The translations under genes and the position numbers were made by a program. The notes under the pieces are model-generated. The model was not told where the DNA came from. It saw only the letters and a program-made list of their open reading frames with translations, and did no database searches. Source: Candidatus Omnitrophota bacterium (lineage in GTDB: Bacteria > Omnitrophota > Gorgyraeia > Gygaellales > Profunditerraquicolaceae). From it: 64,000 bases of DNA. Where the stretch lies: assembly GCA_026387455.1 (NCBI GenBank), contig JAPLLR010000043.1, forward strand, positions 9,683 through 73,682, written 5' to 3'. Below, piece by piece: positions 4,199 through 30,999 of this stretch; the first letter of the stretch is position 1, and each line of letters starts with the position of its first letter.

Positions 4199-4717
4199 AT
4201 GGATGTTTTAGAAATTCTCAAAAGCAGAAGAAGCGTCAGGCAATACTCAGAAGAGCAGATATCAAAAGAATTTTTGGAGAAGATTGTTGATGCGGCCAGG
4301 TTTTCCCCTACTGCCAGAAATGTCCAGCCGTGGGAGTTTATTGTGATCACTCAAGCGCCTATTTTAAAAAAGCTTGGTGATTTAGCGGAGAACGCAAGAT
4401 TTCTAGCCCAGGCAAAAGCCTGTATCGCGGTATTTTGCGCTGATACAAAATATTATTTGGAAGATGGATGCGCCGCAACCTGTAATATTCTGCTTGCCGC
4501 GACTGCTCTGGGCGTTGGTTCCTGCTGGGTTGCCGGAGATAAGAAACTTTATTGCGAGGAAGTAGCTAAATTATTAAATGTACCTGTCACCTATAAATTG
4601 GTGAGCCTGGTGGCTTTAGGCTACCCTAAGTCCAAAGAAAGTTTCCATATCGCGCAAAAGAGAGGCCTGAAAGAAGTGATTCATTGGGAGAAATTGAAGG
4701 ATGGAAAAAGAGAATAA
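4199..4717 (+). CDS. Nitroreductase family protein
   Basis: RRSVRQY...ARFSPTARNVQPWEFIVI signature of the NfsA/NfsB-type nitroreductase fold; SD GGAGCGAAAGAG upstream. Confidence 0.8.
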   Translation: MDVLEILKSRRSVRQYSEEQISKEFLEKIVDAARFSPTARNVQPWEFIVITQAPILKKLGDLAENARFLAQAKACIAVFCADTKYYLEDGCAATCNILLAATALGVGSCWVAGDKKLYCEEVAKLLNVPVTYKLVSLVALGYPKSKESFHIAQKRGLKEVIHWEKLKDGKRE

Positions 4718-5480
4718 GGCAGTAGATAAAATTATACTTGTAGCACTTGTATTTGTAGGACTAATTCTGGCGATCCATGTTTTGTTGGTAAGGATGTATC
4801 AGGGCCTAATGCGCCTTGACTATTATAATGCTTCCTGTCTGTCAGGCATTACTATCCTTGTTTTCTTTTATGCCGCTATAAAGTTCAGTAAACCGCTGGA
4901 GCATCAAATCGTTAATTTTGTCTATTTTAAAGATAAACGGCATTATAAAACGCTGTTAGACGAGTCGATCCGCGATGGTTTGACCGGTTTGTTTGGTCAT
5001 AAATATTTTATGCAAAAGCTTGAAGAGGAGGTGGAGCGCTCTAAGAAGAGCCTAAGTCCGCTTTCGCTACTGATGATAGACATAGATTATTTCAAGAAAT
5101 TTAACGATACTTTTGGCCACCTTGAGGGTGATATGATCTTGACGGAACTCGCAGCTATGTTCAAGCGCTTTCGCAGGGAACAAGTCGATCTAGCCGCCCG
5201 CTATGGAGGGGAAGAGTTTGTCATACTGCTTCCGGAAACGTCCAAAGAAAACGCGAAGATTCTGGCTGAGGAATTGCTCAATCACGCAAAGAAAATCAAT
5301 ACCAGTAAGGGCGTGGTCACCATAAGCATCGGCATTGGTTGCTTTGACGGCAACAGTAAAGATTTTGCTAAAGAAGATCTGATCAGGATCTCAGACGCTG
5401 CGCTTTACCGCGCCAAAGCAGCGGGAAGGGATCGCGTGGAGATTCAAAGGGAGAGCGAGAAGGATGTATGCGAAGAATAA
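4701..5480 (+). CDS. Membrane-anchored GGDEF-domain diguanylate cyclase
   Basis: Two to three N-terminal TM helices, then DGLTGLFGHKYF, DIDYFKKFNDTFGH and the RYGGEEF active-site motif. Confidence 0.85.
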   Translation: MEKENKAVDKIILVALVFVGLILAIHVLLVRMYQGLMRLDYYNASCLSGITILVFFYAAIKFSKPLEHQIVNFVYFKDKRHYKTLLDESIRDGLTGLFGHKYFMQKLEEEVERSKKSLSPLSLLMIDIDYFKKFNDTFGHLEGDMILTELAAMFKRFRREQVDLAARYGGEEFVILLPETSKENAKILAEELLNHAKKINTSKGVVTISIGIGCFDGNSKDFAKEDLIRISDAALYRAKAAGRDRVEIQRESEKDVCEE

Positions 5481-6325: not shown

Positions 6326-9300
6326 ATGATTATCAAAGATTTGATTTTAGTTGACGAATTAACCGGGCATTATAACCGCAGGGGTTTTCGTGAGAGCATC
6401 GGACAGATACTTTCACTTCCCCATGGCGCTGCCAAATCCTTTTATCTTATCCTTACCGATTTAGACCATTTTAAAGATATTAATGACACCTACGGCCACT
6501 TAAGCGGAGACTTCGTGCTTAAGGAATTCGCGGCGCTTTTGGAGCGCGGATTACAGAATACCGAAGCGGTAATTGCCCGCTACGGCGGCGATGAATTTGT
6601 GGCGATTCTAAAAAACTGCAATAGGCAAAATGTAAGCGTCATCTGGGACAAGATACGGCGGGATGTTGCCAATAAAGAATTTATCCTCCCTGGTTCCAAG
6701 CAGAGCCTGCGTCTGACCATGAGCATAGGGATCGTGGAATTCCCTCAGGATGGGTTAACCCAGGAAGAACTGTTAGCTAAAGCCGATGAAGCCCTGTATT
6801 CATCAAAGAGGCTCGGTAAAAACAAACTCACCTTTGCCAACGAGATCCTTGTCCAGACCAAAGAAGAAAAAAGGATCCAAAAGAATATTGCTGAGCCGCC
6901 GTTTGTTGACCGGGCAAACGAATTAGCCGAGATCCAGAAGTTTATTTTTGGAGGGAAAAGCTATAAGCTTATTATCATAAATGGTGAGGTGGGCTGCGGT
7001 AAAAGCCGTATGCTCCAGGAGGTATCCATCCGGGCAAAGGCAAGGAACCTAAAAACATTCTTTCTTGTCTGCGGCGAACAGCAGAAAGAAAAGCCTTACA
7101 GTCTGCTGGAAGATATCATAGGTAGCCTTGTTTACGAGCATGTCGAAATATGCCAAAAGGCGGTGTTCGATCTTCCGCCGAAATTAAAAACCGCGCTCTC
7201 CGCATTACCAAAATTAAAAAGATTATTTGTGCCTCATCTTCATGTGACCCATTGGGATGCCGAGGTGAGGCTAAATCTATTCCACGGGCTCGCAGACCTT
7301 TGTGAAAGCATATTCACCCAGATAAATCCGCTTATTATCGTGGACAATCTCGATTGGATCGATGCCGCAAGCTCAGAAATATTAAGTTTCATAATCCTGT
7401 CTAAGAAACAGACTCCTTTTGTCTTATTAGGAAGCACCAGCCGCCCGGCTTCAAAAACGCACGATAGCGATTCAGCTCTTGATGCGTTGTTGTCGGAGAT
7501 CTCGGAGTTTGAGATTGTGCCTCACATAGCCCTGCCGTTTTTTAATCAGGCAGAGACCGAAGAAGTCGTAAAGGGGATTTTTAGCGGCCATGATATACCT
7601 GAAAAATTCACCAGCGAGTTCTTCGGCGCTACCGAAGGCAACCCCTTTTTCATTGTCGAGTTAATACAATACCTTTGGGACAGGAAAAACATTTATCTGC
7701 AATATCCTCATTGGATATTTCAAATTGACACAAGCCGGCTTCCGAGGGATTTAAGGGAGCTGCTTATCAGCAAGCTGCAAAACCTAGGGGCCGAAGAAAA
7801 GGAATTGCTTCTGGCTGTTTCCGGCATAGGGAGCAACCTTAAGTTTGATTTCCTTTCCAAGCTTAAAAAGATAAACCACGGGCACTTGCAGGATATCCTT
7901 TCCCGCATCTCAGAAAAAAATATCCTAAAGCTCGGAGAAAATCAGGTCGAAGATGAGGTTTTCTTCAATAACGATTCCCTGCGCTCGGTTCTTTATGAGA
8001 GTATCGATACTGAGAAGAAAAAGAAGATCCACCTTGATATTGCTACCACTCTTGAGCATGAATTCAAGAATAATACCGAAGAGATAAGCTCGGAGCTGGC
8101 CTTCCATTTCAACAAGGCAAATCTTGAAGCTAAGACAAAAAACTATGCCCAGCAGGCGGTCGTCTATATCGAAAACCTTTTTTCAAACGCTGAGGCGGAA
8201 AAGGTCATCGAAAATGCCATTAACGACCGGGAAGAGAAGGAGCGCCATGAGCCGATAAAAAAAGATACCTGGCCGCTGATAATGGAGATCATTAGCTCTT
8301 TTAATTCAGCGATAAAAAGTATGCAGATGTACCAGATGCCTAATGAGATCACCACAAAGATGGTCTATAGCCTAGCCAGATGTTTGGAAGAATTTTTTAC
8401 GGCCTACCATATACTTACCTTTAGCTGTCCGTCCGGAGATATCAAGCTTTTGATAAACGGGCAGGAATTGCATCTGCCATCCCATTCGGAAGATATGTTT
8501 ACAAAGACCATTCTTGCCATTATGAACATGGCTAATATCGGAAGCATTACTTTTCATCGCACTGTTTCGGCTAATGAGATCAAGGCATTTATCGGCCTTC
8601 TTTCTAATCCCAAACTATCGATGGAAAAAAAGGAACAATGGAAAAAGATCCTCCTTGATTATAAGATCAACGCCATAAATATCGATGAGGTGCTCTACAA
8701 AAAAGTCTATTCCGAAGAAGAAAAAAGGCAGTTGCATAAGGAATTCATCAAAGAATTCATGATAAAAAGAGCTATCGGAGAGGCTGTTCCTCTGCCGAAG
8801 GAAGGTGGCGCTAAGGTTGGTGACGAGAAAGAAGAGACCAAGGTCATCAAAAAAATAAAGGTTTTCGATGAAGCGGAAACAGACCTTTTTGCTAAAACCA
8901 TCTCCCATTTTTCGCCGGACGTGCTAGTGGAGGTAATTACTGATGAATACCGCCGTCATATAACAGCGATCTTGGATATCAGGGAAATGGTCAAGGTGTG
9001 CCTGAAAGACTCCCAACAAAAAGAAACAATCGCCGTAAAATTGAAAGATGCCCTAATAAAGTTGGGGATGTCGGATGTCTGCTTTGCGTGGCTTATCGAT
9101 AGTCATGATTTTCTGCACTATCCTGTGATCAAGAGGGCCAACACATATTTGAATGCTGATTCCGGAACTATTCTTGCTATGGGGGTTATAGAAAATCTTA
9201 AACCCACCCTTAATGAACTTTTTGTAATAAATGAAAGCGCTCTTGCAGAACAGATCTTGGATAAATATCTTCTGAATTTACAAAGCAGCGAGCTGGAAGC

Positions 9301-10213
9301 AAAGATATATACGGCCGTAACCTTGCCGGAGATCATAAAGATCATTCCCGCGCACCTTGCGGATTTCTACGTGAAAAGAATCACCGCTCTTTTTCTTCAG
9401 GCGCTTCATGTTGAAAATGATCAGCAAGCTTATGAATCGCTTGCGATGGATGCGGGGGCTATTATTTCTCGCTTACAGGAACTCAGCAATTATTGGGATA
9501 TCTATAGGGTTATCTCTACGCTAAAAGAAGATCTTAATGCTTCAGGAGGGCTTGTCTGGAGGAGGCAATTGGCTAAGGAAGCCTTGAAAGGAATAGACAT
9601 ATTTTCTCTGTGCGCTCAGCTAGCAAGTATTCTTGATGAAGTCGCCTTTGATGCCAGCAAGAATGCCTTAGTTATCTCTCTCTTTAAGAAGATGATGCCG
9701 GAAGGGATCCTTTATTTTATTGAGACATTAGAAACAAGGCAATCGAGCACCCTGCTTTTCGAATGGTACCTGCAGAACCTGGAATTACTGGATATACTCA
9801 AGGAATTTAAAACCGAAACCGTGCCTTTCATAGAAATGCTTATTGATTCAGGGGCACAGAAAAGGGTATTGCTTGCTTTAGATATAATGGAAAGGATAAA
9901 TGATGAACAGCAACTTCCTCTTTATGAAAAAGCTATTCAAAGCAATGACCTGGAGATTAAAAGAAATTATTTTCGATCGCTTATTCAGATGAATACAGAA
10001 AGCGCTTTTTCAATGATAAAAAGATTATTTCCCAGACAGGACCCCGAGACACAGCGGGATATTGTCATAGATATGGGGGTGTATGGGAGCAGAAAAGAGA
10101 TGAGTGAGTTTTTGAAAAGCCTGCTTGACCAGAAAATTTATGGGTTAGGCCGAAAAGAAATACTTTTGTACATTGATAAAATTAATACTTGCCTATCTCA
10201 TAAAGGGAAGTAG
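6326..10213 (+). CDS. Large multidomain signalling protein: N-terminal GGDEF domain, P-loop NTPase (AAA_16/STAND-like), and about 850 aa of helical (HEAT/TPR-like) repeats
   Basis: LTGHYNRRGF, DLDHFKDINDTYGH and RYGGDEF motifs in residues 1-170; Walker A GEVGCGKS and Walker B LIIVDNLDWID; long C-terminal helical region. Confidence 0.8.
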   Translation: MIIKDLILVDELTGHYNRRGFRESIGQILSLPHGAAKSFYLILTDLDHFKDINDTYGHLSGDFVLKEFAALLERGLQNTEAVIARYGGDEFVAILKNCNRQNVSVIWDKIRRDVANKEFILPGSKQSLRLTMSIGIVEFPQDGLTQEELLAKADEALYSSKRLGKNKLTFANEILVQTKEEKRIQKNIAEPPFVDRANELAEIQKFIFGGKSYKLIIINGEVGCGKSRMLQEVSIRAKARNLKTFFLVCGEQQKEKPYSLLEDIIGSLVYEHVEICQKAVFDLPPKLKTALSALPKLKRLFVPHLHVTHWDAEVRLNLFHGLADLCESIFTQINPLIIVDNLDWIDAASSEILSFIILSKKQTPFVLLGSTSRPASKTHDSDSALDALLSEISEFEIVPHIALPFFNQAETEEVVKGIFSGHDIPEKFTSEFFGATEGNPFFIVELIQYLWDRKNIYLQYPHWIFQIDTSRLPRDLRELLISKLQNLGAEEKELLLAVSGIGSNLKFDFLSKLKKINHGHLQDILSRISEKNILKLGENQVEDEVFFNNDSLRSVLYESIDTEKKKKIHLDIATTLEHEFKNNTEEISSELAFHFNKANLEAKTKNYAQQAVVYIENLFSNAEAEKVIENAINDREEKERHEPIKKDTWPLIMEIISSFNSAIKSMQMYQMPNEITTKMVYSLARCLEEFFTAYHILTFSCPSGDIKLLINGQELHLPSHSEDMFTKTILAIMNMANIGSITFHRTVSANEIKAFIGLLSNPKLSMEKKEQWKKILLDYKINAINIDEVLYKKVYSEEEKRQLHKEFIKEFMIKRAIGEAVPLPKEGGAKVGDEKEETKVIKKIKVFDEAETDLFAKTISHFSPDVLVEVITDEYRRHITAILDIREMVKVCLKDSQQKETIAVKLKDALIKLGMSDVCFAWLIDSHDFLHYPVIKRANTYLNADSGTILAMGVIENLKPTLNELFVINESALAEQILDKYLLNLQSSELEAKIYTAVTLPEIIKIIPAHLADFYVKRITALFLQALHVENDQQAYESLAMDAGAIISRLQELSNYWDIYRVISTLKEDLNASGGLVWRRQLAKEALKGIDIFSLCAQLASILDEVAFDASKNALVISLFKKMMPEGILYFIETLETRQSSTLLFEWYLQNLELLDILKEFKTETVPFIEMLIDSGAQKRVLLALDIMERINDEQQLPLYEKAIQSNDLEIKRNYFRSLIQMNTESAFSMIKRLFPRQDPETQRDIVIDMGVYGSRKEMSEFLKSLLDQKIYGLGRKEILLYIDKINTCLSHKGK

Positions 10214-10223
10214 GGGAGATGGA

Positions 10224-10865
10224 ATGATGAAAAAAACGATTCCTATTATGATTGCGGCGATGCTGTTGACAGTAACGGCATTTGCACAAGAGGCAAAGAC
10301 TATTCAGTTACCCAAGCCGAATATGAGCGGCGGGAAACCCCTAATGCAAGCGCTTAAAGAGCGCAAAAGTGTCCGTGAATTCAGCTCTAAGGAACTTACG
10401 CCGCAGGTTTTGTCGGACATGCTCTGGGCGGCAAACGGGATCAATCGTCCTGAGTTAGGATATCGCACCGCTCCCAGCGCCCATAACGCGCAGGAGATCG
10501 ATATCTATGCCGTGTTATCAGACGGGTTGTATTTATTTGATGCTTTGGCGCATGAGCTAAAGTTGATCGCGTCGGGAGACCTACGCGGCCTTACAGGTAA
10601 ACAGCCTTTTGTTAAAGAGGCAGCGGTTAATTTGATCTATGTCGCAACACTTTCTAAATTGGGAAACGCGTCCAGCGAAGACGCGGCTTTTTATGCGGCT
10701 ACTGATGCAGGATTTGTCAGCGAAAACGTGTATTTGTATTGTGCTTCAGCAGGTTTAGCTACTGTCGTGCGGGGGTGGGTGGATAAGACAGCTTTGGGAA
10801 AAGTGATGAAGCTAAGGCCAGATCAAAAGGTGATCCTTGCGCAAACCGTAGGCTATCCGAAATAA
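10224..10865 (+). CDS. Secreted SagB-type nitroreductase-family protein
   Basis: Signal peptide MMKKTIPIMIAAMLLTVTAFA; KSVREFSSKELTPQVLSDMLWAANGINRPE...APSAHNAQEID as in SagB/ThcOx-type dehydrogenases. Start moved to the ATG at 10224, which has an SD GGGGAGATGG (the ORF track starts at 10173, inside the previous gene). Confidence 0.7.
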   Translation: MMKKTIPIMIAAMLLTVTAFAQEAKTIQLPKPNMSGGKPLMQALKERKSVREFSSKELTPQVLSDMLWAANGINRPELGYRTAPSAHNAQEIDIYAVLSDGLYLFDALAHELKLIASGDLRGLTGKQPFVKEAAVNLIYVATLSKLGNASSEDAAFYAATDAGFVSENVYLYCASAGLATVVRGWVDKTALGKVMKLRPDQKVILAQTVGYPK

Positions 10866-10869
10866 AATC

Positions 10870-11280
10870 ATGGTGAATCTGGATAAAGAAAAATCATTGC
10901 ATGAGTTGATGATCCGCCTCGGGGTGCGCGAAGAGGATATAGAAGAAAAGTTTATCCGCTCCCAGGGGCCAGGCGGGATGAACGTTAACAAGGTTTCGAC
11001 CTGCGTGTATTTGCGGCATCTGCCAACCGGCATAGAGGTCAAATGCCAGCAGGAGCGCTCGCAGGCACAGAACCGATTTCTAGCCAGGCGGATTTTGTTG
11101 AGCAAGATTGAATCCAGTATTTTGGGCAGGCTTTCCGCGGAAAGAATGCGCATCGAGAAGATCCGCCGGCAGAAGCGCAGGAGATCCCGCCGGGCCAAGC
11201 TGAAAATCTTAGAGGCAAAGCGCCGGCATTCTCAGAAAAAATCTCTTCGCACCAGGGTGCGGCAGGGGGAAGATCAGTGA
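10870..11280 (+). CDS. ArfB-like RF-1 domain protein with GGM in place of the catalytic GGQ
   Basis: IRSQGPGGMNVNKVSTCVYLRH aligns with ArfB/YaeJ [22 protein letters not shown]; the basic C-terminal tail is as in ArfB; the codon is ATG, not CAG/CAA. Confidence 0.7.
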   Translation: MVNLDKEKSLHELMIRLGVREEDIEEKFIRSQGPGGMNVNKVSTCVYLRHLPTGIEVKCQQERSQAQNRFLARRILLSKIESSILGRLSAERMRIEKIRRQKRRRSRRAKLKILEAKRRHSQKKSLRTRVRQGEDQ

Positions 11281-11300
11281 TCTGCGCGTTAAATTGCTCT

Positions 11301-11329
11301 TGACTGATGGAGCTTGGCCGAATACAATA
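11301..11329 (+). promoter_or_regulatory. Sigma70-like promoter (TTGACT - 17 nt - TACAAT)
   Basis: Hexamers read from the sequence; lies about 200 nt upstream of carB. Confidence 0.4.
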
Positions 11330-11469
11330 GTACAAACATTAAAATCAGTTACAAAGGCTTGGGCTTAATGCTTCTAGCGGTAAAATCACACCAGAAATAT
11401 TTTAGGCAACTCTTGAGAATTTAGAGGGTTGCTTATTTTTTTACCCTAGCCTGCTTAAAATTTAATAAT

Positions 11470-11520
11470 ACACCCAACTTTATAGGAGAAGTTGGTGTTC
11501 CGCTTCCTGCGGAAGGAGGT
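11470..11520 (+). promoter_or_regulatory. Conserved two-hairpin 5' leader motif ending in GCGGAAGGAGGT, 5 nt before the carB ATG
   Basis: Near-identical to 23890-23940; hairpin 1 is CAACTT/AAGTTG here versus CTGGC/GCCAG in the other copy (covariation); hairpin 2 is TTCCGC-TTCCT-GCGGAA overlapping the SD. Confidence 0.55.
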
Positions 11521-11525
11521 TACTC

Positions 11526-14500
11526 ATGCCAAGACGTACAGACATCAAAAAAGTCATCATCATCGGCTCAGGCCCCATTATCATCGGGCAGGCCTGCGAA
11601 TTCGATTATTCCGGCACCCAGGCTTGTAAAGCGCTGCGTGAGGAGGGGTATGAGATCGTGTTGGTGAACTCTAACCCCGCGACTATCATGACCGATCCCG
11701 GTATGGCGGATAATACCTATATAGAGCCGCTTACCGTTGAGAGCCTGACCAAGATAATTGAGAAAGAGCGGCCGGATGCGCTGTTGCCTAATTTGGGAGG
11801 ACAGACCGGATTGAACCTGTCTTCTGCTTTGCATAAGTTAGGAGTATTGGATAAATTCGGGGTCAAGATCATCGGCGTAAAAGCTGACGCTATTGAAAGA
11901 GGTGAAGACCGCGATGCGTTCAAGGACACCATGAAAAAACTGGGCATCCCTGTGCCGCGCTCGCAGACCTGCAATACTTTAGTGGAGGCCCAGAAGGCGG
12001 CGCAGGAACTGGGCTATCCGGTGGTTATCCGTCCGGCATATACGATGGGCGGGACTGGCGGAGGTATCGCTTATAATAACGAAGATTTTTTTACTCTTGT
12101 AAATCGCGGTCTTAACGCTAGCATTATACATCAGGTGCTAATCGAAGAAGCGGTCATCGGCTGGGAGGAGCTGGAGCTTGAGGTGGTGCGCGACGAGAAG
12201 AATCAGAAGATTACCGTCTGTTTTATCGAGAATATCGACGCTATGGGTGTGCATACCGGAGATAGCTTCTGTGTTGCTCCTATGCAAACCGTCCCCCAGG
12301 AGCTGCAGAAAAGACTGCAGGATTATTCCTATAAAATTGTGGATGCCATTGGTGTGGTGGGGGGGACAAATATCCAGTTCGCGCACAATTTAAAAGACGA
12401 CCGCATAGTGGCTATAGAAATAAATCCCCGCACCTCGCGTTCTTCTGCTTTGGCTTCTAAGGCTACGGGTTTTCCTATCGCTCGCGTTTCTACAAAATTA
12501 GCCGCGGGTCTTACTCTCGATGAAATGCCTTATTGGAGAAAAGGGACATTAGAGAAATACGAGCCGTGGGGTGAGTATGTAGTGATCAAATTCGCGCGCT
12601 GGGCTTTTGAGAAATTTCGCCAGGCAAAAGATATCCTGGGCACGCAGATGAAGGCAGTGGGCGAAGTAATGAGTATTTCTAAGTCATTCAAGGAAGCGTT
12701 TCAGAAATCTATCCGCTCGCTTGAGACCGGAAGATACGGTTTGGGGTTTGCCAAAGATTTTAACAGTCTGTCTTTGGAAGAACTAAAGTCCCGGCTGGTA
12801 ACTCCATCCAGCGAGCGCGTATTCTTGGTGTATGAGGCGCTGCGCAAGGGCGCAACCGTAGAGGAGCTTTACGCACTCACCTTTATCGGCAGATGGTTTA
12901 TTAAAGAAATGAAAGAGATGGTTGAATTTGAACAGGATATGCTTGCCACCGGATGGCAGGGGCTGTCGGATGCGAGTTTGCGTAAAGCCAAGGAGTGGGG
13001 CTTCAGCGACAGGTACCTGGCCAAGATATTTAAGGTAAAAGAGGCGGATGTGCGCGGCCGCAGGAAGAAGCTGATGGGCAACGCTCGTTTTGAGCCTGTG
13101 CCGGTTAGCGGTGTGAAAGACGCCGCGTATTATTATTCCACTTATACTCCGGGCGAGGACCTGGTTTCAGTTTCCGGTAATAAAAAAATATTGATCTTGG
13201 GCGGTGGGCCGAATCGTATCGGACAGGGTATTGAGTTTGATTATACCTGTGTGCATGCGGCTTTTGCTCTGCGCGATGCGGGGTTGGAAACCATCATGAT
13301 CAACTGTAACCCTGAGACAGTCTCAACTGATTATGATACGTCAAATAAGCTTTATTTTGAGCCATTGACGGTTGAGGATGTCCTGGCGATATGGGAAAAG
13401 GAAAAACCGGTCGGTGCGATCGTGCAGTTTGGCGGTCAGACGCCTTTGAATATCGCCGCGGAATTGGAGAAGAACGGAGTGAAGATCATCGGCACAAGCA
13501 CTAAATCAATCGCTTTTGCTGAGGATCGCGAGTTATTCAGACAGAAGATGATAGCGCTGGGCATCCGACAGACCGAAGGCGGCACGGCGGGCTCCCTGGA
13601 TGAGGCGATTGCTATTGCCGGTAGAATTGGCTATCCGGCGATGGTCAGGCCTTCGTTTGTTTTGGGCGGCCGCGGTATGGAAGTGATTTACGACGAAAAG
13701 ATGCTTATTAAATACGCCAAAGAGGCGATACAGGTCTCACCTGAGTATCCTATGTTGATCGACCGTTTTCTGGATAATGCTATTGAATGCGAGGTGGATG
13801 CGCTTTGTGACGGCAAAGATACATTTGTGGCCGCGGTGATGGAGCATATCGAGCACGCAGGTATCCACTCCGGGGATTCCGCTTGCACTATTCCTTCGCG
13901 CAGCATTAAGCAAGAGCACTTGAAGACTATTGACGAGTGGACGAAAAAAATCGCCGTGGAATTAAAAGTGGTAGGCTTGATCAATATTCAATACGCTATT
14001 TGCGATGACCAGGTTTATATCTTGGAGGCTAACCCGCGAGCTTCCCGTACGGTGCCGTTGGTAGCTAAAACCATGGGCATTCCGTTGGCGCGTATTGCCA
14101 CCCAGCTTATACTGGGCAAAAAGATCAGCGACTTTACGGAGCTGATTTCGCGTAAGATTCCATATGTCACGGTTAAAGAAGCGGTGTTTCCTTTTAACAT
14201 GTTCCCGGAGGTCGATCCGGTTTTGGGCCCCGAGATGCGGGCAACCGGAGAGGTGATGGGAATCGGCGATGATTTCGGGGTGGCGTTTTACAAGGCCCAG
14301 GAGTCAGTGGGCACTAAGCTTCCCCTTGAGGGAAATGTTTTGATCACCGTAGCGGACAAGGATAAGCAGAATCTTTTTCCGATAGCCTCAAAGCTTGTGC
14401 AATTGGGATTTAAGATCTTTACAACGGAAAACACTCATAGATATTTGAAAGAAAAGGGTGTGGATTCTACTTTGATCAAAAAACTGCACGAGGGCAGGCC

Positions 14501-18715: not shown

Positions 18716-19498
18716 TTATTTTTTGGACTTACCCTGATTGGTAACTGAAGCGATAGCGCTGTTTAATTTCTCAGCGTCAGCAAGATAATAGTGTTTTATG
18801 GGTTTAAGATTCTGATCCAGCTCATAAACCAGTGGAATGCCGGTGGGAATATTCAGTCCTACAATTTCCTCATCAGAAACATTATCCAGGTATTTTACCA
18901 GCGCTCGAAGGCTGTTGCCGTGGGCGGCGATCAATACCTTTTTCCCGGATTTGATGGATGGCCCGATAGTTTCGTGCCAGTAAGGAAGAAAGCGCTCTAC
19001 TGTATCCTTGAGGCACTCGGTGAGCGGAACATCTTTGGGGGCAAGATTCTTGTAGCGCGCCTCATTGCCCGGCCAGCGCGCGTCAGTTTTCTCTAAGGGC
19101 GGAGGAGGGGTGTCGTAACTTCTGCGCCACACCAAGACCTGCTCTTCGCTGAATTTCTGAGCGGTTTCGGACTTGTTCAGGCCCTGCAAAGCGCCGTAAT
19201 GCCGTTCATTCAGGCGCCAGGAATTATATACCGGTATCCACATTTGGTCCATTTTGTCTAAGGTGATCCAAAGGGTGCGGATAGCTCTTTTTAATACCGA
19301 GGTGTAGGCTATATCAAATACAAAGCCTTCTTTTTTTAAGGCTTCTCCGGATTCGGATGCTTCTTGCAGGCCTTTCTCCGATAAGTCTACATCTGTCCAG
19401 CCGGTAAAACGATTTTCTTTGTTCCAGGTGCTTTCTCCGTGCCTTAAGAGTACAAGTTTTATATTATTCATAAAAGTCTCCTTATTAGTGTTTAACAA
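18716..19498 (-). CDS. gpmA: 2,3-bisphosphoglycerate-dependent phosphoglycerate mutase
   Basis: [29 protein letters not shown]...HGNSLRAL; the only convincing minus-strand gene. Confidence 0.95.
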
Positions 19499-25753: not shown

Positions 25754-26167
25754 ATGCATATTTTCGAGAAATTGCCTTCCCGCCTAGAAATGATCCCCCC
25801 ACTTGTTCAGGCGGTAATAGAAAAATTAGAAAAATCCGGCCTTTCAAAGGAAAAGCTTTTTGATGTGAAGCTTTGTCTTGATGAGGCGCTGGTCAATGCT
25901 GTTAAGCATGGCAATAAATTCAGCCCGGAGCATCATGTGGAGGTAGAGGCTGAGATTACTGGCGATAGTCTGATTATCCAGGTAAGGGATCGGGGGCAGG
26001 GATTTGATTATACTAAGATACCTAATCCTACCGAGAAAAGTAACCTTGAGAAGAATCACGGCCGGGGGGTATTTTTGATCAAAACGCTGATGGATAAAGT
26101 TGAACATTTCGATTCTGGCCGCACCATAAAGATGGTTAAATTTATAAAAAACGGGGGTAAAAAGTGA
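25754..26167 (+). CDS. Anti-sigma regulatory factor, Ser/Thr kinase (RsbW/SpoIIAB-like HATPase)
   Basis: LDEALVNAVKHGN (N-box), DRGQGFD (G1), GRGVFLIKTLMD (G2). Confidence 0.8.
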   Translation: MHIFEKLPSRLEMIPPLVQAVIEKLEKSGLSKEKLFDVKLCLDEALVNAVKHGNKFSPEHHVEVEAEITGDSLIIQVRDRGQGFDYTKIPNPTEKSNLEKNHGRGVFLIKTLMDKVEHFDSGRTIKMVKFIKNGGKK

Positions 26168-26496
26168 AGATCAGAGAAGAGCGGATCGGTGGCGCGGTAA
26201 TCTGTTTTCTAGAGGGCGAGATCAATATCAATAATTCTCCTGAATTGCGCAAAGCCTTTGATGGGATCATTGCTAAGAACGAGAAGAAAGTGGCGGTGAA
26301 CTTTTCAGGGGTCAACTATATCGACAGCTCCGGCCTTGCCACGCTAATAGAGATGTTTCAGCGCCTGAAAAAGATCGGGGGAGCTTTGCGTTTTTGCAAC
26401 ATGGAGCAGAAAATTAAGAACGTATTTGAGATTACTAAGCTGCACAAGTTGTTTGAGATATTTGATACGCAGGAGAACGCGCTAAAGGACTTTTAA
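26164..26496 (+). CDS. STAS-domain anti-sigma-factor antagonist (SpoIIAA/RsbV-like)
   Basis: 110 aa; the conserved phosphorylatable serine context NYIDSSGLATLIEM. Confidence 0.8.
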   Translation: MKIREERIGGAVICFLEGEININNSPELRKAFDGIIAKNEKKVAVNFSGVNYIDSSGLATLIEMFQRLKKIGGALRFCNMEQKIKNVFEITKLHKLFEIFDTQENALKDF

Positions 26497-27284
26497 TGAT
26501 CAATGCTTTGGGAAAATTCGTCATAGACTATCTGAAATGGGTAAAGGGCGTGGTAATCCTTTTTATGGATATCCTTTATTGGACTTTTATCGGTCCGTTC
26601 AAGGGTAAGGCCGCGCACCGCGAGGCGATTTTTTACCAGATGAGTTTTGTGGGCGTGCGCTCCATTATTATAGTATTTTTTGTGGATATATTCACCGGTA
26701 TCGTTATCGCCATGCAGACCGCGTATCAATTTGAGAAGATGGGCGCGGGTATTTACGTGGCAGCACTTGTAGCTATCGCCTTGTGCCGCGAGCTTAGCCC
26801 GGTCTTGACCGCGCTGGTAGTGGCTGGGCGCGTGGGCTCGGCGATCGCCGCGGAGTTGGGTACTATGAAAGTCAGCGAGCAGATCGAAGCACTGGACACC
26901 ATGGCCATCAACCCGGTGAGGTTCTTGGCTGTTCCCAGATTTCTTGCTTTATTGTTGATGCTGCCGTGTTTAACAATTCTCGGTGATATCGCCGGCATTA
27001 TCGGCGGCTATATCGTTGGCAACGGCACGCTGCATATCAATACTGATCTGTATTTTCAGACCACATTCAAATATCTTAAGTGTAAAGATATCTATACGGG
27101 TTTGATCAAGTCGGGGGTATTCGCGGTGATCATCGCGCTTATCGGTTGTTTTGAGGGCCTGAATACCCGCGGTGGAGCAGAGGGTGTGGGAAGGGGAACC
27201 ACCCGAAGCGTGGTTATTAGCTTTATCCTGATAATTCTGGCCGATTGTATTTTAACCGCGTTTTTCTATTTTTCAAAAGTATGA
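26496..27284 (+). CDS. mlaE: Mla-type ABC transporter permease
   Basis: Polytopic permease with a C-terminal EG-x-x-RGGAEGVG motif. Confidence 0.85.
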   Translation: MINALGKFVIDYLKWVKGVVILFMDILYWTFIGPFKGKAAHREAIFYQMSFVGVRSIIIVFFVDIFTGIVIAMQTAYQFEKMGAGIYVAALVAIALCRELSPVLTALVVAGRVGSAIAAELGTMKVSEQIEALDTMAINPVRFLAVPRFLALLLMLPCLTILGDIAGIIGGYIVGNGTLHINTDLYFQTTFKYLKCKDIYTGLIKSGVFAVIIALIGCFEGLNTRGGAEGVGRGTTRSVVISFILIILADCILTAFFYFSKV

Positions 27285-28090
27285 GCGAAGCCGTTAAAAT
27301 TGATCCTATTATATCTTTGCGCAATGTTTCTAAGTCCTTTCAGGGGAATAAGATCATTGATAATGTTAACCTTGATATTTATCCCGGAGAGACATTTGTG
27401 ATTATGGGTTGTTCCGGCTCGGGCAAGAGCACGCTGCTACGCTTGATGACCGGGGCATTGCGCCCGGAGGAGGGCAGTGTCCTGATCAAGGGTAAGGATA
27501 TCGCAAGTATTTCCGAGGCCCAGCTGGATGAGGTAAAAAAAGGTTTTGGCATGACCTTTCAGTATTCAGCGCTGCTGGATTCGCTTTCTGTAGAAGATAA
27601 CGTTGCCCTTCCCATCAAAGAGCACACTAAATTAGCCGATGAGATCATCGATATTATTATTAAGATGAAGCTTGCGCTGGTGGGTTTACGCGGATACGAG
27701 AAGTATCTTCCTTCACAGATATCAGGCGGTATGAGAAAGCGTGTCGGCCTGGCGCGCGCCATTGCATTGGACCCGGATATAGTATTTTACGATGAGCCGA
27801 CTTCGGGGCTTGATCCGGTAGTAGGTGGCGTGATCGACCATCTGATTAAGGACCTGAGCGTCAAGCTTTGCATTACTTCCGTCGTGGTGACTCACGATAT
27901 GCAAAGCGTATTCGCCATCGGTGACAGGATCGCCATGGTGCATAAGGGTAAAATCGTCGAAGTAGGTACACCGGATGAGATCCGTAATTCTAAGAATCCT
28001 TACATTCAGCAATTTATAAACGGCAAGCCGGAAGGCCCGATAGATTTTTTTAAGGAAGATATAGGTATCATCCAGGCTTTGGGATTATAA
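27281..28090 (+). CDS. mlaF: Mla-type ABC transporter ATP-binding protein
   Basis: Walker A GCSGSGKST, signature ISGGMRKRVGLARA, Walker B IVFYDEPTSGLD. Start at the ATG at 27281 overlapping the mlaE stop (ATGA). Confidence 0.85.
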   Translation: MSEAVKIDPIISLRNVSKSFQGNKIIDNVNLDIYPGETFVIMGCSGSGKSTLLRLMTGALRPEEGSVLIKGKDIASISEAQLDEVKKGFGMTFQYSALLDSLSVEDNVALPIKEHTKLADEIIDIIIKMKLALVGLRGYEKYLPSQISGGMRKRVGLARAIALDPDIVFYDEPTSGLDPVVGGVIDHLIKDLSVKLCITSVVVTHDMQSVFAIGDRIAMVHKGKIVEVGTPDEIRNSKNPYIQQFINGKPEGPIDFFKEDIGIIQALGL

Positions 28091-28132
28091 GTGAGGGCAC
28101 AATTTATGGAGTCCAATGGATGGGCGACATAA

Positions 28133-28172
28133 GGCCCTTCCTAATTGGATAGGAAGGCCTACCCCTGTGGGG
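28133..28172. repeat. Dispersed short palindromic repeat unit (GGCCCTTCCT...ATAGGAAGGCCTACCCCTGTGGGG)
   Basis: Near-identical to units at 44427-44512; internal hairpins CCTTCC/GGAAGG and CCCC-TGT-GGGG. Confidence 0.6.
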
Positions 28173-28284
28173 CAAATTGTATGCCCGAACTTACCCCTGC
28201 AGCTACAAGAAAAATTTTAGGGCAAAGCCCACAAATTTTTCGAAGTGTTTAGCTGCAAGGGGTACAATACTAGTGAGGGTTACT

Positions 28285-28929
28285 ATGAAAAAGGCAAATT
28301 TCAATAATGAGTTTAAGGTGGGGTTATTTGTGGTATTGTGCCTGCTTGGTCTGGGGTATCTGATATTCTCAAGTAATAAGTCCAATATAAAAAAGGGCGG
28401 CTATAATATCTACGTTGTATTTAATGATATCGCCGGACTTGAGGAAAAGGCTCCGGTGATGCTTAACGGCCTTGAAGTGGGCAAAGTCGACGACATTGAT
28501 ATCCTGTATGACGAAGCCGGTACCGCGATTACCCTTAAGCTGTGGCTGGATGATAAGGCAAAAGTGCGTGAGGACGGGGTGGTTTCCATAAAGACCCTTG
28601 GTTTAATGGGTGAGAAATTCATCCAGATATCTTCTGTCGGCAATTCGGAGTTCTTAAAGCCCGGCGCAAAGTTAACGGGCAAACCTTATATGGATATTGA
28701 CGCGCTTTTGGAGCAGGCCCAGATCATGACTAAGAATATCTCGACTGAGGTGAGTAAGCTGGTAGTCAATTTAAACAGCACTGTCGAGGGTAATAAGGGC
28801 AACGTGTCTCAGATAGTTAAGAATCTTGAGGCTACTTCAAAGAATTTCGAAGAGTTTAGCGATGATATCAAACGGCATCCTTGGAAACTTCTGATGAAGA
28901 CCAAGGAAAAACCGCCGGCGAAGAAATAG
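28285..28929 (+). CDS. mlaD: MCE-domain periplasmic substrate-binding protein
   Basis: N-terminal TM helix then an MCE domain. Start moved to the ATG at 28285 with SD GTGAGGG; the ORF track start at 28177 lies in the repeat-containing leader. Confidence 0.8.
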   Translation: MKKANFNNEFKVGLFVVLCLLGLGYLIFSSNKSNIKKGGYNIYVVFNDIAGLEEKAPVMLNGLEVGKVDDIDILYDEAGTAITLKLWLDDKAKVREDGVVSIKTLGLMGEKFIQISSVGNSEFLKPGAKLTGKPYMDIDALLEQAQIMTKNISTEVSKLVVNLNSTVEGNKGNVSQIVKNLEATSKNFEEFSDDIKRHPWKLLMKTKEKPPAKK

Positions 28930-29079
28930 TTTACTAGTTATAAGGGTATTACTCAGAAGTTGAATAAGCACAATCTTCTGACTGTCTATTACACCTACCG
29001 GCAAAATACCTCTAATGATCTTTTCGAGTGGTATTCAAAAATTATGTATAACTGCGGTTGGCAGTATATTTCCTAACCG

Positions 29080-30999
29080 ATGAAATTCCTTAAAACTATT
29101 CCTTTAAAGATCTGGGTCATCAGTGCTTCGGTCCTGATGATTTTCTTTTTTTCATGGGGCAGGACTTTTAACAATTACGAGTCCATATCTTATGATCTGC
29201 GCTTTAAACTCCGTCCGGTTTTAAAGGTTAGCCCCGATATCGTCATTGTCGAGATCTCTGACGATACCCTTAAGAGACTGGGAGAATGGCCGCTTTCCCG
29301 GGATTTTCACGCCAGCCTTATTGATGTTTTAAAAGAAAAAGGCGTGCGCATGGTGGTTTTTGACGTGCTTTTCAGCGAGCCTGCCGTTTATGATGATGTC
29401 TTGGCAAAATCCATTAAAGATGCCGGGAATGTGTACATGGCGGTGGCGTTAGAAAATCCGCAAGGCAGAAGTTTTCCTTTAAAGAGCAGCACAGTAATCG
29501 CGGACCTGCGTGACACCTTTAGGGAATCCTGCGTGGGAGTGGGTTATATTAACGCGGATATCGATCCCGACGGCAAGGCGCGCAAGGTGCCGCTCTTCAT
29601 AAAATGCGAAGGAAGTCTTTATCCGCAGCTTGCGCTTAAGGTGGCCGGGGATTGGCTGGGCCTTGATTTGAATAGCGCGGTCTATAAAAGAGGCAGGATC
29701 GTTATCGGGGGAAATTATTCCCTTCCGGTTCTACCGGAAGGTTCCTTTATGGTCAATTACCCCGGCACATGGAGCTCAACCTTTAGGCATTTATCATATG
29801 TAGAAATCCTTAAAGCTTATACTGACGAGAAGCAGGGTATCAAGCCGCAGCTTGATTTATCTATCCTTAAAGATAAAGTCTGTTTTGTCGGCCTTACCGC
29901 TACAGGTACTTCCGATATCAGGCCCAATCCGCTGGAGAATCTCTATCCTATGCTTGGGCTACAGGCAAGCGTCTTAAACAGTATTTTGACTAGTAGGTTT
30001 ATCACGCCTGTGGGATTATTCCTGAATACGTTTATTAATCTGCTGGTTTTTGCGTTAAGCCTCTTTATTTGTTTACGTTTCGCGCCCTTAAGAGCTTTTT
30101 GCTCAAGCATTATTTTAGGCAGCGTCTATTTTATTTTTGCTGTTACTGTTTTTGTGTTTTTCGGCTTCTGGGTAGATCTGTTTTTGCCGCTTTTTATCAT
30201 TGCGCTTACCTATATTGGTTCAACAGCTTATCGCTTTTTTAACGAAACCAAGAAACGCCAGCTTCTGGAGAAAGAGCTGGATATCGCGCGGGCTATTCAG
30301 AAGAGCTTCCTTCCTAAGGATATAAAAGAGTTTTCCGGAATAACCGTGTCCAGCTTCATGCAGCCGGCGAAATTCGTTGCTGGAGACCTGTATGATATCC
30401 TGACGGTTAAAGATAATAAAGTGGGCGTATTTATCGGAGATGTCTCGGGCAAAGGTGTGCCGGCGTCGTTGATTATGGCCCAGACTATTTCGTTATTTCG
30501 GGTGTTCGCCAATCAGTATGATTTCGCGCATGAAGTATTAAACCGCCTGAATAAAGAATTATACGGTAGGTTTGAGGGAAGGTTTGTCACTTGTCTTTAT
30601 ATGATCATCGACTCGCAGGCAGGTAAGGTGCAGGTTTCTTCAGCGGGACACTCTCCGGTTCTGGTTTACCGTAAGGGCGGCAACGCGGTTTTAGAGATCG
30701 AGCTGGGGGCAGGAATGCCCTTGGGGGTAATGGATGAAACGGAATATGAAGACGTCGCATTTGATCTAAGGCCCAACGACAAGGTCATGGTTTATACGGA
30801 CGGTCTTTCCGAGGCGCGCAACCGCCAGTCCCAGGAGTTCGGATCCGAGAACGCAAAAAGAATATTTTTCGAGCATGGAGACGCTTCTTCTGATAGAATA
30901 TTAGGGGTGACAAAGGAAGCGCTCAGCCGTTTTGCAGCCGGCGCGCCGCAGCATGACGATATCACTATTATCGTGCTGGCGAATCTAAGGAAGAGTTAA
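29080..30999 (+). CDS. CHASE2 sensor-domain PP2C/SpoIIE-type serine phosphatase
   Basis: N-terminal TM plus a periplasmic CHASE2-like region, several TM helices, then RAIQKSFLP...GDLYD...GDVSGKGVPASLIMAQ...HDDITII phosphatase motifs. Confidence 0.8.
   Translation: MKFLKTIPLKIWVISASVLMIFFFSWGRTFNNYESISYDLRFKLRPVLKVSPDIVIVEISDDTLKRLGEWPLSRDFHASLIDVLKEKGVRMVVFDVLFSEPAVYDDVLAKSIKDAGNVYMAVALENPQGRSFPLKSSTVIADLRDTFRESCVGVGYINADIDPDGKARKVPLFIKCEGSLYPQLALKVAGDWLGLDLNSAVYKRGRIVIGGNYSLPVLPEGSFMVNYPGTWSSTFRHLSYVEILKAYTDEKQGIKPQLDLSILKDKVCFVGLTATGTSDIRPNPLENLYPMLGLQASVLNSILTSRFITPVGLFLNTFINLLVFALSLFICLRFAPLRAFCSSIILGSVYFIFAVTVFVFFGFWVDLFLPLFIIALTYIGSTAYRFFNETKKRQLLEKELDIARAIQKSFLPKDIKEFSGITVSSFMQPAKFVAGDLYDILTVKDNKVGVFIGDVSGKGVPASLIMAQTISLFRVFANQYDFAHEVLNRLNKELYGRFEGRFVTCLYMIIDSQAGKVQVSSAGHSPVLVYRKGGNAVLEIELGAGMPLGVMDETEYEDVAFDLRPNDKVMVYTDGLSEARNRQSQEFGSENAKRIFFEHGDASSDRILGVTKEALSRFAAGAPQHDDITIIVLANLRKS

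Follow-up and report, generated by a model that had tools for sequence, protein, structure and literature searches.

A natural methionine in place of the GGQ glutamine in a putative mtRF-R-like protein of Omnitrophota

To our knowledge, GGQ is taught as the one motif common to all release factors, in all domains of life. The role of its glutamine side chain has been debated for 25 years, the proposals being water coordination, packing together with exclusion of other nucleophiles, or very little. Substitutions of this glutamine in RF1, RF2 and eRF1 reportedly fail to support growth, with some activity left in vitro. The two glycines adopt backbone angles open to glycine only and mutating them kills release; the backbone NH of the glutamine is likewise essential, and a Q-to-P change is dead (PMC4691834, PMC5799190). 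The same two sources give the glutamine side chain a role in packing and in selecting water as the nucleophile, with reasonable activity retained by Q-to-E and packing improved by N5-methylation. Selection of water by the side chain is the finding of Shaw and Green (2007), as relayed by PMC4691834. Moreover, some structural models assign the side-chain carbonyl a role in coordinating water, and methionine has no such carbonyl (PMC5799190). In the mechanism drawn from structural work of 2025, as summarised by a 2026 review (PMC13602936), it is the 2'-OH of A76, not the glutamine side chain, that first attacks the ester carbonyl, after which water hydrolyses the peptide from the tRNA. This mechanism, in which the tRNA 2'-OH attacks first, has reopened the question of what the side chain contributes.

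Several proteins carry the GGQ domain without codon-recognition domains. Burroughs and Aravind (2019; PMC6514570) separate ArfB class 1, comprising E. coli YaeJ and ICT1 and marked by an inserted alpha-i helix, from a 'classical' ArfB group that lacks this helix and clusters with C12orf65. In human C12orf65, or mtRF-R, a rescue factor of mitochondria, the glutamine is methylated by HEMK1, and loss of the methylation is tolerated in HeLa cells (PMC8904536). In vitro mtRF-R is inactive in release with either 70S or 55S complexes; together with the S4-domain protein MTRES1 it acts on large subunits that have split off with peptidyl-tRNA still attached (PMC8786322). For Hsp15-bound 50S complexes of bacteria, the corresponding factor has been described as unknown (PMC9757039). 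Here we describe a bacterial gene whose product resembles mtRF-R and has methionine where the glutamine is expected.

The gene and the family of its product

Within the 64-kb stretch of DNA analysed here (the window), the ORF at 10870-11280 on the + strand runs from an ATG start to a TGA stop and encodes a 136-aa protein containing FIRSQGPGGMNVNKVSTCVYLRH, exactly as quoted in the first-pass annotation. The product is identical in sequence to NCBI MCX5705493.1, a 'peptide chain release factor-like protein' from a Candidatus Omnitrophota MAG. Its sole domain is Pfam RF-1 (PF00472; 84.9 bits against a cut-off of 35, E=5e-24, residues 17-130), and a database search returned hundreds of homologues; therefore, the ORF is a real gene. 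Given this strong homology support on the + strand, an antisense ORF lying almost wholly inside the gene (10812-11198, - strand, 128 aa) was judged to be a shadow ORF. A scan for promoters and terminators around the gene gave counts not above those of shuffled sequence. Residues 35-36 are Gly-Gly and residue 37 is Met, encoded by ATG, so that the Gly-Gly-Gln tripeptide is absent. The basic C-terminal tail that had been noted earlier is present, with 22 K/R in the last 50 residues (87-136). In the AlphaFold2 model (mean pLDDT 88.5; secondary structure by DSSP) three strands, at residues 24-29, 45-50 and 56-59, lie between the two helices of Table 1, of which the C-terminal one is a single long helix. 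The GGM loop sits between strands 1 and 2, and strands 45-50 and 56-59 are joined by a five-residue turn (LPTGI) with no helix there.

Table 1. Positions of the gene, the parts of its product, its upstream neighbour and the RRM-paired GGQ loci
Feature	Position	Strand	Basis
CDS, stand-alone RF-1-domain (GGQ-domain) protein	10870-11280	+	ORF list, Pfam, exact database match, dN/dS
N-terminal helix, residues 4-17, before first GGQ-domain strand	10879-10920	+	AlphaFold2/DSSP
Catalytic loop G33-P-G-G-M-N-V-N-K41, counterpart of the release-factor GGQ loop	10966-10992	+	Alignment to C12orf65, RF1
ATG codon, Met37 in place of the conserved GGQ Gln	10978-10980	+	Sequence
Long C-terminal helix, residues 65-135	11062-11274	+	AlphaFold2/DSSP
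Strongly basic distal half of C-terminal helix, residues 87-131	11128-11262	+	Composition
Nitroreductase-family protein directly upstream	10224-10865 (ORF listed from 10173)	+	Domain search
RRM-paired GGQ loci	L008 (4725-5411), L006, L087, L091, L092, L097, L098, L100		
RRM-paired GGQ loci, continued	L101, L103, L104, L107, L108, L110, L111, L112, L116		

The protein had been called an ArfB/YaeJ-like rescue factor. That description is apt as far as it denotes a stand-alone, codon-independent, release-factor-like protein with a basic tail, but it does not extend to identity with ArfB of the E. coli type. The best match among PDB sequences was human C12orf65/mtRF-R (7a5h_C; 77.9 bits, E=8e-21), with residues 17-118 of the GGM protein aligned to residues 53-153, compared with 28 bits (E=2e-5) for E. 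coli ArfB/YaeJ. RF1, RF2 and PrfH gave E values of 1e-13 to 1e-9 in the same search, RF1 and RF2 at no more than 53 bits. Amongst the NCBIfam models, the ArfB equivalog NF006718 scored 51.2 bits against a cut-off of 100 and matched residues 15-49 alone; prfB (70 bits against 370) and the prfA models (62-64 bits against 400-423) matched domain 3 alone, and PrfH TIGR03072 scored 56.9 bits against 166.65. No RtcB gene, to which PrfH is linked elsewhere, is found in the 64-kb window. Foldseek searches with the model returned domain 3 of RF1 and RF2, PrfH and C12orf65, the matches to domain 3 and to PrfH having a probability of 1.0 and 37-46% identity over about 75 residues. Codon-recognition domains are absent and a basic C-terminal extension is present, as in ArfB of any class and in mtRF-R. 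Moreover, the alpha-i helical insertion that defines ArfB class 1 is absent from the AlphaFold2 model, as it is from RF1/RF2 and C12orf65. On the strength of these sequence and model comparisons we assign the protein to the 'classical ArfB' (mtRF-R/C12orf65-like) group and not to class 1.

The family ranges over Omnitrophota and MAGs labelled Syntrophorhabdus, Aminicenantes, Elusimicrobia/Endomicrobia, Planctomycetota and others. Some of the sequences recovered are longer: P0130-P0141 (about 170-200 aa) and P0143 (511 aa) have N-terminal extensions of 40-80 residues or are joined to a sizeable additional stretch, and may be organellar (C12orf65-type) proteins or new domain fusions.

Distribution, ancestry and constraint of the GGM form

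Amongst 438 distinct relatives, 409 carry GGQ and 22 carry GGM; the rest are one GGS, one GGL, one GEQ and four fragments. The 120 closest database clusters comprise 96 with GPGGQNVN and 21 with GPGGMNVN, together with single instances of GAGGQNVN, GPGGQNIN and GPGGSNVN. When the GGM protein most distant from the rest was used to seed another search, one further GGM sequence and no other variant came to light. The 22 distinct GGM sequences correspond to about 53 contigs from many metagenomes (JGI, ENA, NCBI, Logan), with one protein (P0021) found on 20 contigs and another (P0044) on 9. By comparison, GGM occurs in one of 80 GTDB species representatives (L001, 93% identical), the other 79 being GGQ, and the readable motifs in 150 representatives of 50%-identity clusters are all GGQ save one GEQ and one GGL. 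The GGL motif lies in a degenerate-looking sequence of 115 aa and the GEQ motif in one of 124 aa (P0235, P0161). At site 37 the Omnitrophota group shows Q, M and one S only; the intermediates K, L and T are absent from the group, the second, divergent-seeded search included. The GGS sequence (P0079; L165 649-1065, codon TCG) is a close Omnitrophota relative known from a single Logan contig of ERR10755942.

The replacement of glutamine by methionine is genuine. All 11 GGM loci for which there is DNA use ATG (L001, L081, L084/85, L089, L115, L166-L171). The first-pass annotation had set aside a sequencing error on the ground that ATG is two substitutions from CAG or CAA. The count is right for CAG, whereas CAA is three away, and relatives encode the glutamine by CAG in 119 cases and by CAA in 33. 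A separately assembled Logan contig from run SRR20698647 agrees with window positions 9803-11618 at every base (100% identity), the ATG included, though the reads behind it may be those of the MAG. That the motif reflects a sequencing or assembly error, or an incipient pseudogene, we regard as having practically no probability. The rarity of the motif is all that speaks for this, and the reading is refuted by the recurrence of ATG, two nucleotides from CAG, across independent projects (22 distinct sequences, about 53 contigs), and by ORFs that are intact and keep dN/dS at about 0.1 although synonymous divergence is saturated. Orthologues at least 86% identical to the window protein are all GGM, so that the refuting case named in the first-pass annotation, GGQ in the orthologues and a mutation in this copy only, fails, and with it a strain-specific mutation as an explanation. 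Within the library that could be searched, no paper combines 'GGM' with 'GGQ' and 'release factor'. What appears to be new is that the catalytic glutamine has been replaced in nature, throughout a lineage, and that selection maintains the replacement; the fold, the family and the general role were already known.

We then consider whether the GGM form is a paralogue, as had been proposed. Each of 80 GTDB species genomes has one locus (80/80, the genomes being read in part and the MAGs being incomplete), and tblastn of the protein finds no second copy in the window or in any of 172 loci. At the GGM loci L001, L084/85, L089 and L115, and at the GGQ loci L002 and L083, the neighbours match window genes in rearranged order, amongst them secretin, pyruvate kinase, DUF520, GNAT, PIG-L and others. 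Pyruvate kinase directly follows the gene in both L089 (GGM) and L002 (GGQ). L001 and L115 carry the large upstream GGDEF-ATPase gene at 92-93% identity, and L001 and L085 carry carB at 93-98%. Because the loci are related and the gene is single-copy in each genome, we interpret GGM as an orthologous replacement, that is, as the version of an ordinary single-copy gene found in a group of related Omnitrophota; the proposal of a paralogue is not upheld.

The GGM sequences and a few GGQ sequences have a common background of eight residues (L13, E25, S31, Y47, F70, L71, R74 and R92). One pair across the two states, P0013 (GGQ, CAG) and P0018 (GGM), is 92% identical. Both come from JGI sample 3300035660 (L164 74-484 and L166 8001-8405, respectively), on different contigs with different neighbours, and probably represent two co-existing populations rather than one genome. 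In neighbour-joining bootstraps of protein and codon alignments the sequences without glutamine were never monophyletic, and the trees require 3-9 state changes, compared with 16-22 when labels are shuffled. In a Templeton test, forcing monophyly lengthened trees of about 2017 steps by 15-21 (p=0.12-0.24), so that a single origin is not rejected; the gene is too short to decide between one and several origins of GGM. Whatever that number, Q and M occupy what are, by alignment, nearly identical protein backgrounds.

GGM genes are under constraint similar to that of their GGQ relatives. Pairs of GGM genes, with dS from 0.2 to saturation, have dN/dS of 0.04-0.135 (median 0.10); the median is 0.12 for pairs of GGQ genes and 0.12 for mixed pairs. 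The ratio being about the same in both forms, there is no relaxation of constraint. The loop G33-P34-G35-G36-x-N38-V39-N40-K41 varies little or not at all across 21 GGM sequences and 124 GGQ sequences close to them, and no other position changes specifically with the methionine. Methionine has a single codon, and its persistence across saturated synonymous divergence implies that codon changes have been removed by selection. Judged by these rates, Met37 is held by purifying selection and the remaining protein is under normal constraint.

Such constraint is shared by a different reading, which we consider unlikely: that the change from Q to M abolished hydrolysis and left a catalytically dead ribosome binder, with a non-hydrolytic job that needs the loop in the peptidyl-transferase centre. 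The protein would then hold or block large subunits carrying peptidyl-tRNA, aid tRNA ejection or subunit recycling, or compete with active factors. Purifying selection and an intact Gly-Gly loop fit a function in binding alone, and conservation of that loop would also be expected if only docking were needed. Moreover, the near-invariance of the glutamine across the superfamily (409/438 relatives), which the literature calls universal, argues that the amide matters in vivo and hence against retained activity. There is also a precedent in MRPS35, an inactive RF-domain protein that lost the glutamine and took a structural role (PMC6514570). However, the subfamily is single-copy in the loci and genomes read and shares its neighbourhood with GGQ forms, and there is neither the rate change nor the accompanying substitution usual after a change of function. 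The 92% identity of P0013 and P0018 shows the two states exchanging on a near-identical background. Free variation would be expected at site 37 if the side chain were irrelevant, yet the Omnitrophota group has Q, M and one S only, and mutations of the glutamine side chain are in any case far milder than those of the glycines (PMC4691834).

Genomic neighbourhood

The window is ordinary chromosome, with genes for arginine and lysine biosynthesis, rplM-rpsI, uvrA, and Mla, Exb/Tol and pilus genes. In the Pfam-scanned set, 57 of the 58 long ORFs lie on the + strand, the lone minus-strand ORF (18716-19498) belonging to the histidine phosphatase family. The only translation-related genes in the window are rplM-rpsI (Pfam on 58 proteins, Rfam and ARAGORN). 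Pfam found no prfA/B, prmC, smpB, pth, rqcH or S4 gene amongst the 58 proteins of the 64-kb window, and ARAGORN and Rfam found no tRNA, tmRNA or Rfam element in it. An S4-domain partner resembling MTRES1, Hsp15 or RqcP is absent both from the window and from the recurrent neighbours of 133 loci.

The nitroreductase gene directly upstream ends 4 nt before the start codon of the release-factor-like gene, a gap which suggests co-translation of the two in the window. This neighbour had been described as a secreted SagB-type nitroreductase. It does belong to the nitroreductase family, and its N-terminus resembles a signal peptide (MMKKTIPIMIAAMLLTVTAFA/QE), an unusual feature in a flavin nitroreductase; the SagB label is weak (TIGR03605, 55 bits against a cut-off of 78.4). 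Another nitroreductase-family gene lies at 4199-4717. A functional link between the release-factor-like gene and its upstream neighbour was rejected: the pairing is absent in L115, L166, L168 and L170, and the nitroreductase is incidental because it is not conserved beside the gene in other GGM loci.

Across 133 loci there is no general conserved neighbour. The best recurrence is with RRM-type RNA-binding proteins with long Arg/Lys/Pro-rich tails, at 17 Omnitrophota GGQ loci (Table 1), where one or two RRM genes precede the GGQ orthologue. The pairing is lineage-specific but recurrent, and both genes are RNA- or ribosome-related. Elsewhere in the window, the product of 6326-10213 (1295 aa) begins with a GGDEF diguanylate cyclase domain, which is fused to an ATPase of STAND/AAA_16 type and followed by a C-terminal region that is long and helical, and a second, stand-alone GGDEF protein lies at 4701-5480. 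A partner-switching module at 25754-30999, composed of a HATPase_c_2 anti-sigma-type kinase, a STAS protein and a CHASE2-SpoIIE phosphatase, adjoins the Mla lipid-transport operon (26496-28929).

Possible function and comparison with known systems

Taken together, the explanation that we rate somewhat above even is that this is a single-copy, mtRF-R-like orthologue of Omnitrophota in which glutamine was replaced by methionine in one lineage, the protein being most likely a still active hydrolase. It would belong with the stand-alone, codon-independent hydrolases of mtRF-R type, in which a GGQ domain (domain 3 of release factors) is joined to a long basic helix. The protein would bind to a ribosome that has stalled, or to a large subunit that has split off with its peptidyl-tRNA, and its Gly-Gly-X loop would enter the peptidyl-transferase centre and release the nascent chain. 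In one Omnitrophota lineage the glutamine would have become methionine by two nucleotide changes from CAG and then have been held by purifying selection. The methionine side chain, unbranched, similar in size and hydrophobic, would replace the packing and nucleophile-excluding role of the N5-methylated glutamine. Activity has most likely been kept because the indispensable parts, both glycines together with the backbone NH at position 37, are retained. The first-pass annotation held that GGQ substitutions normally abolish hydrolysis; this is so for both glycines but not for the glutamine side chain, Q-to-E keeping reasonable activity (PMC4691834, PMC5799190). Either a 70S non-stop complex or a 50S-peptidyl-tRNA complex could serve as substrate, closeness to mtRF-R favouring the latter.

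Glutamine is the standard genetic mimic of methionine sulfoxide, which counts in favour of a further, quite improbable reading in which the methionine mimics methyl-glutamine. In one form of it, the S-methyl group of methionine would replace the N5-methyl-glutamine that PrmC produces, and the factor would no longer need that methyltransferase; in the other, Met37-sulfoxide, near glutamine in shape and polarity, would serve as a redox gate, so that release responds to oxidative stress. The glutamine of GGQ, that of mtRF-R included, is normally N5-methylated, with improved packing (PMC8904536, PMC4691834, PMC5799190), and the site tolerates essentially Q or M only. The gene in the window is, moreover, seemingly co-translated with a nitroreductase. 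However, the nitroreductase linkage is absent from other GGM loci, and the reading is purely inferential.

Alternatively, the methionine may alter the chemistry, changing nucleophile selection or the product, for instance through attack by a nucleophile other than water. We think this very improbable. Selection of water has been reported as a property of the glutamine side chain (Shaw and Green 2007, as relayed by PMC4691834), and the GGS relative P0079 (TCG) is of note here, small side chains being reported to relax the selection. Nevertheless, methionine is about as large as glutamine, so the exclusion of larger nucleophiles should persist, and no linked enzyme or conserved neighbour points to a new substrate.

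The methionine has been kept by selection across the whole lineage and is therefore a natural test of the role of the glutamine, and the near-identical GGQ orthologue (P0013 compared with P0018, 92%) makes a ready-made pair for direct biochemical comparison. A widespread and uncharacterised bacterial family is thereby brought to attention. Since this family is nearer to mtRF-R than to ArfB, it is a candidate for the factor, so far missing, by which split 50S subunits would be cleared of their nascent chains. The most far-reaching version, that the family is the bacterial counterpart of mtRF-R (a release factor for 50S subunits with peptidyl-tRNA) and that GGM shows the glutamine amide to be dispensable, with methionine acting as a methyl-glutamine mimic or a redox switch, we put forward as a distinctly long shot. 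If true, methionine would be a hard-wired, PrmC-independent mimic of N5-methyl-glutamine or, as the sulfoxide, a redox-gated release switch.

Of the described systems, mtRF-R/C12orf65 (MTRFR; PDB 7a5h, 2rsm) is similar at about 40-50% identity, the alignment covering the GGQ domain and reaching into the basic C-terminal helix, as far as residue 118 of the Omnitrophota protein. Both proteins lack codon-recognition domains and a helix inserted between the last two strands, and both have a long basic helix. The loop reads GPGGxNVNK in the Omnitrophota protein and GPGGQATNK in mtRF-R, and the residue that is a HEMK1-methylated glutamine there is methionine here; the Omnitrophota gene is, in addition, bacterial and chromosomal. 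ArfB/YaeJ of E. coli and ICT1 share with it the stand-alone GGQ domain and the basic C-terminal tail, and their codon-independent rescue of stalled ribosomes is what would be expected of the Omnitrophota protein. They differ in combining GGQ with the alpha-i helix, where the Omnitrophota protein has GGM and lacks that helix, and in having a flexible linker followed by a short helix, where a continuous helix is predicted to extend into the tail.

Domain 3 of RF1/RF2 and PrfH have the same fold and the same loop context. However, the Omnitrophota protein lacks domains 1, 2 and 4 of RF1/RF2 and hence would not read stop codons, and the RtcB neighbour of PrfH is not found beside its gene. Closest to the substitution itself are engineered glutamine mutants on the 70S ribosome, in which the same position is altered: RF2 Q253P and the GGS and GGD forms of RF1 (PDB 4v9n, 9mtr and 9mtq), the RF1 GGS (9mtr) and GGD (9mtq) mutants having been crystallised on the 70S. 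These show that the loop still docks in the peptidyl-transferase centre when the glutamine is changed. They were, however, made in the laboratory to slow or stop release, whereas the methionine of Omnitrophota is natural and has been kept by selection across a lineage.
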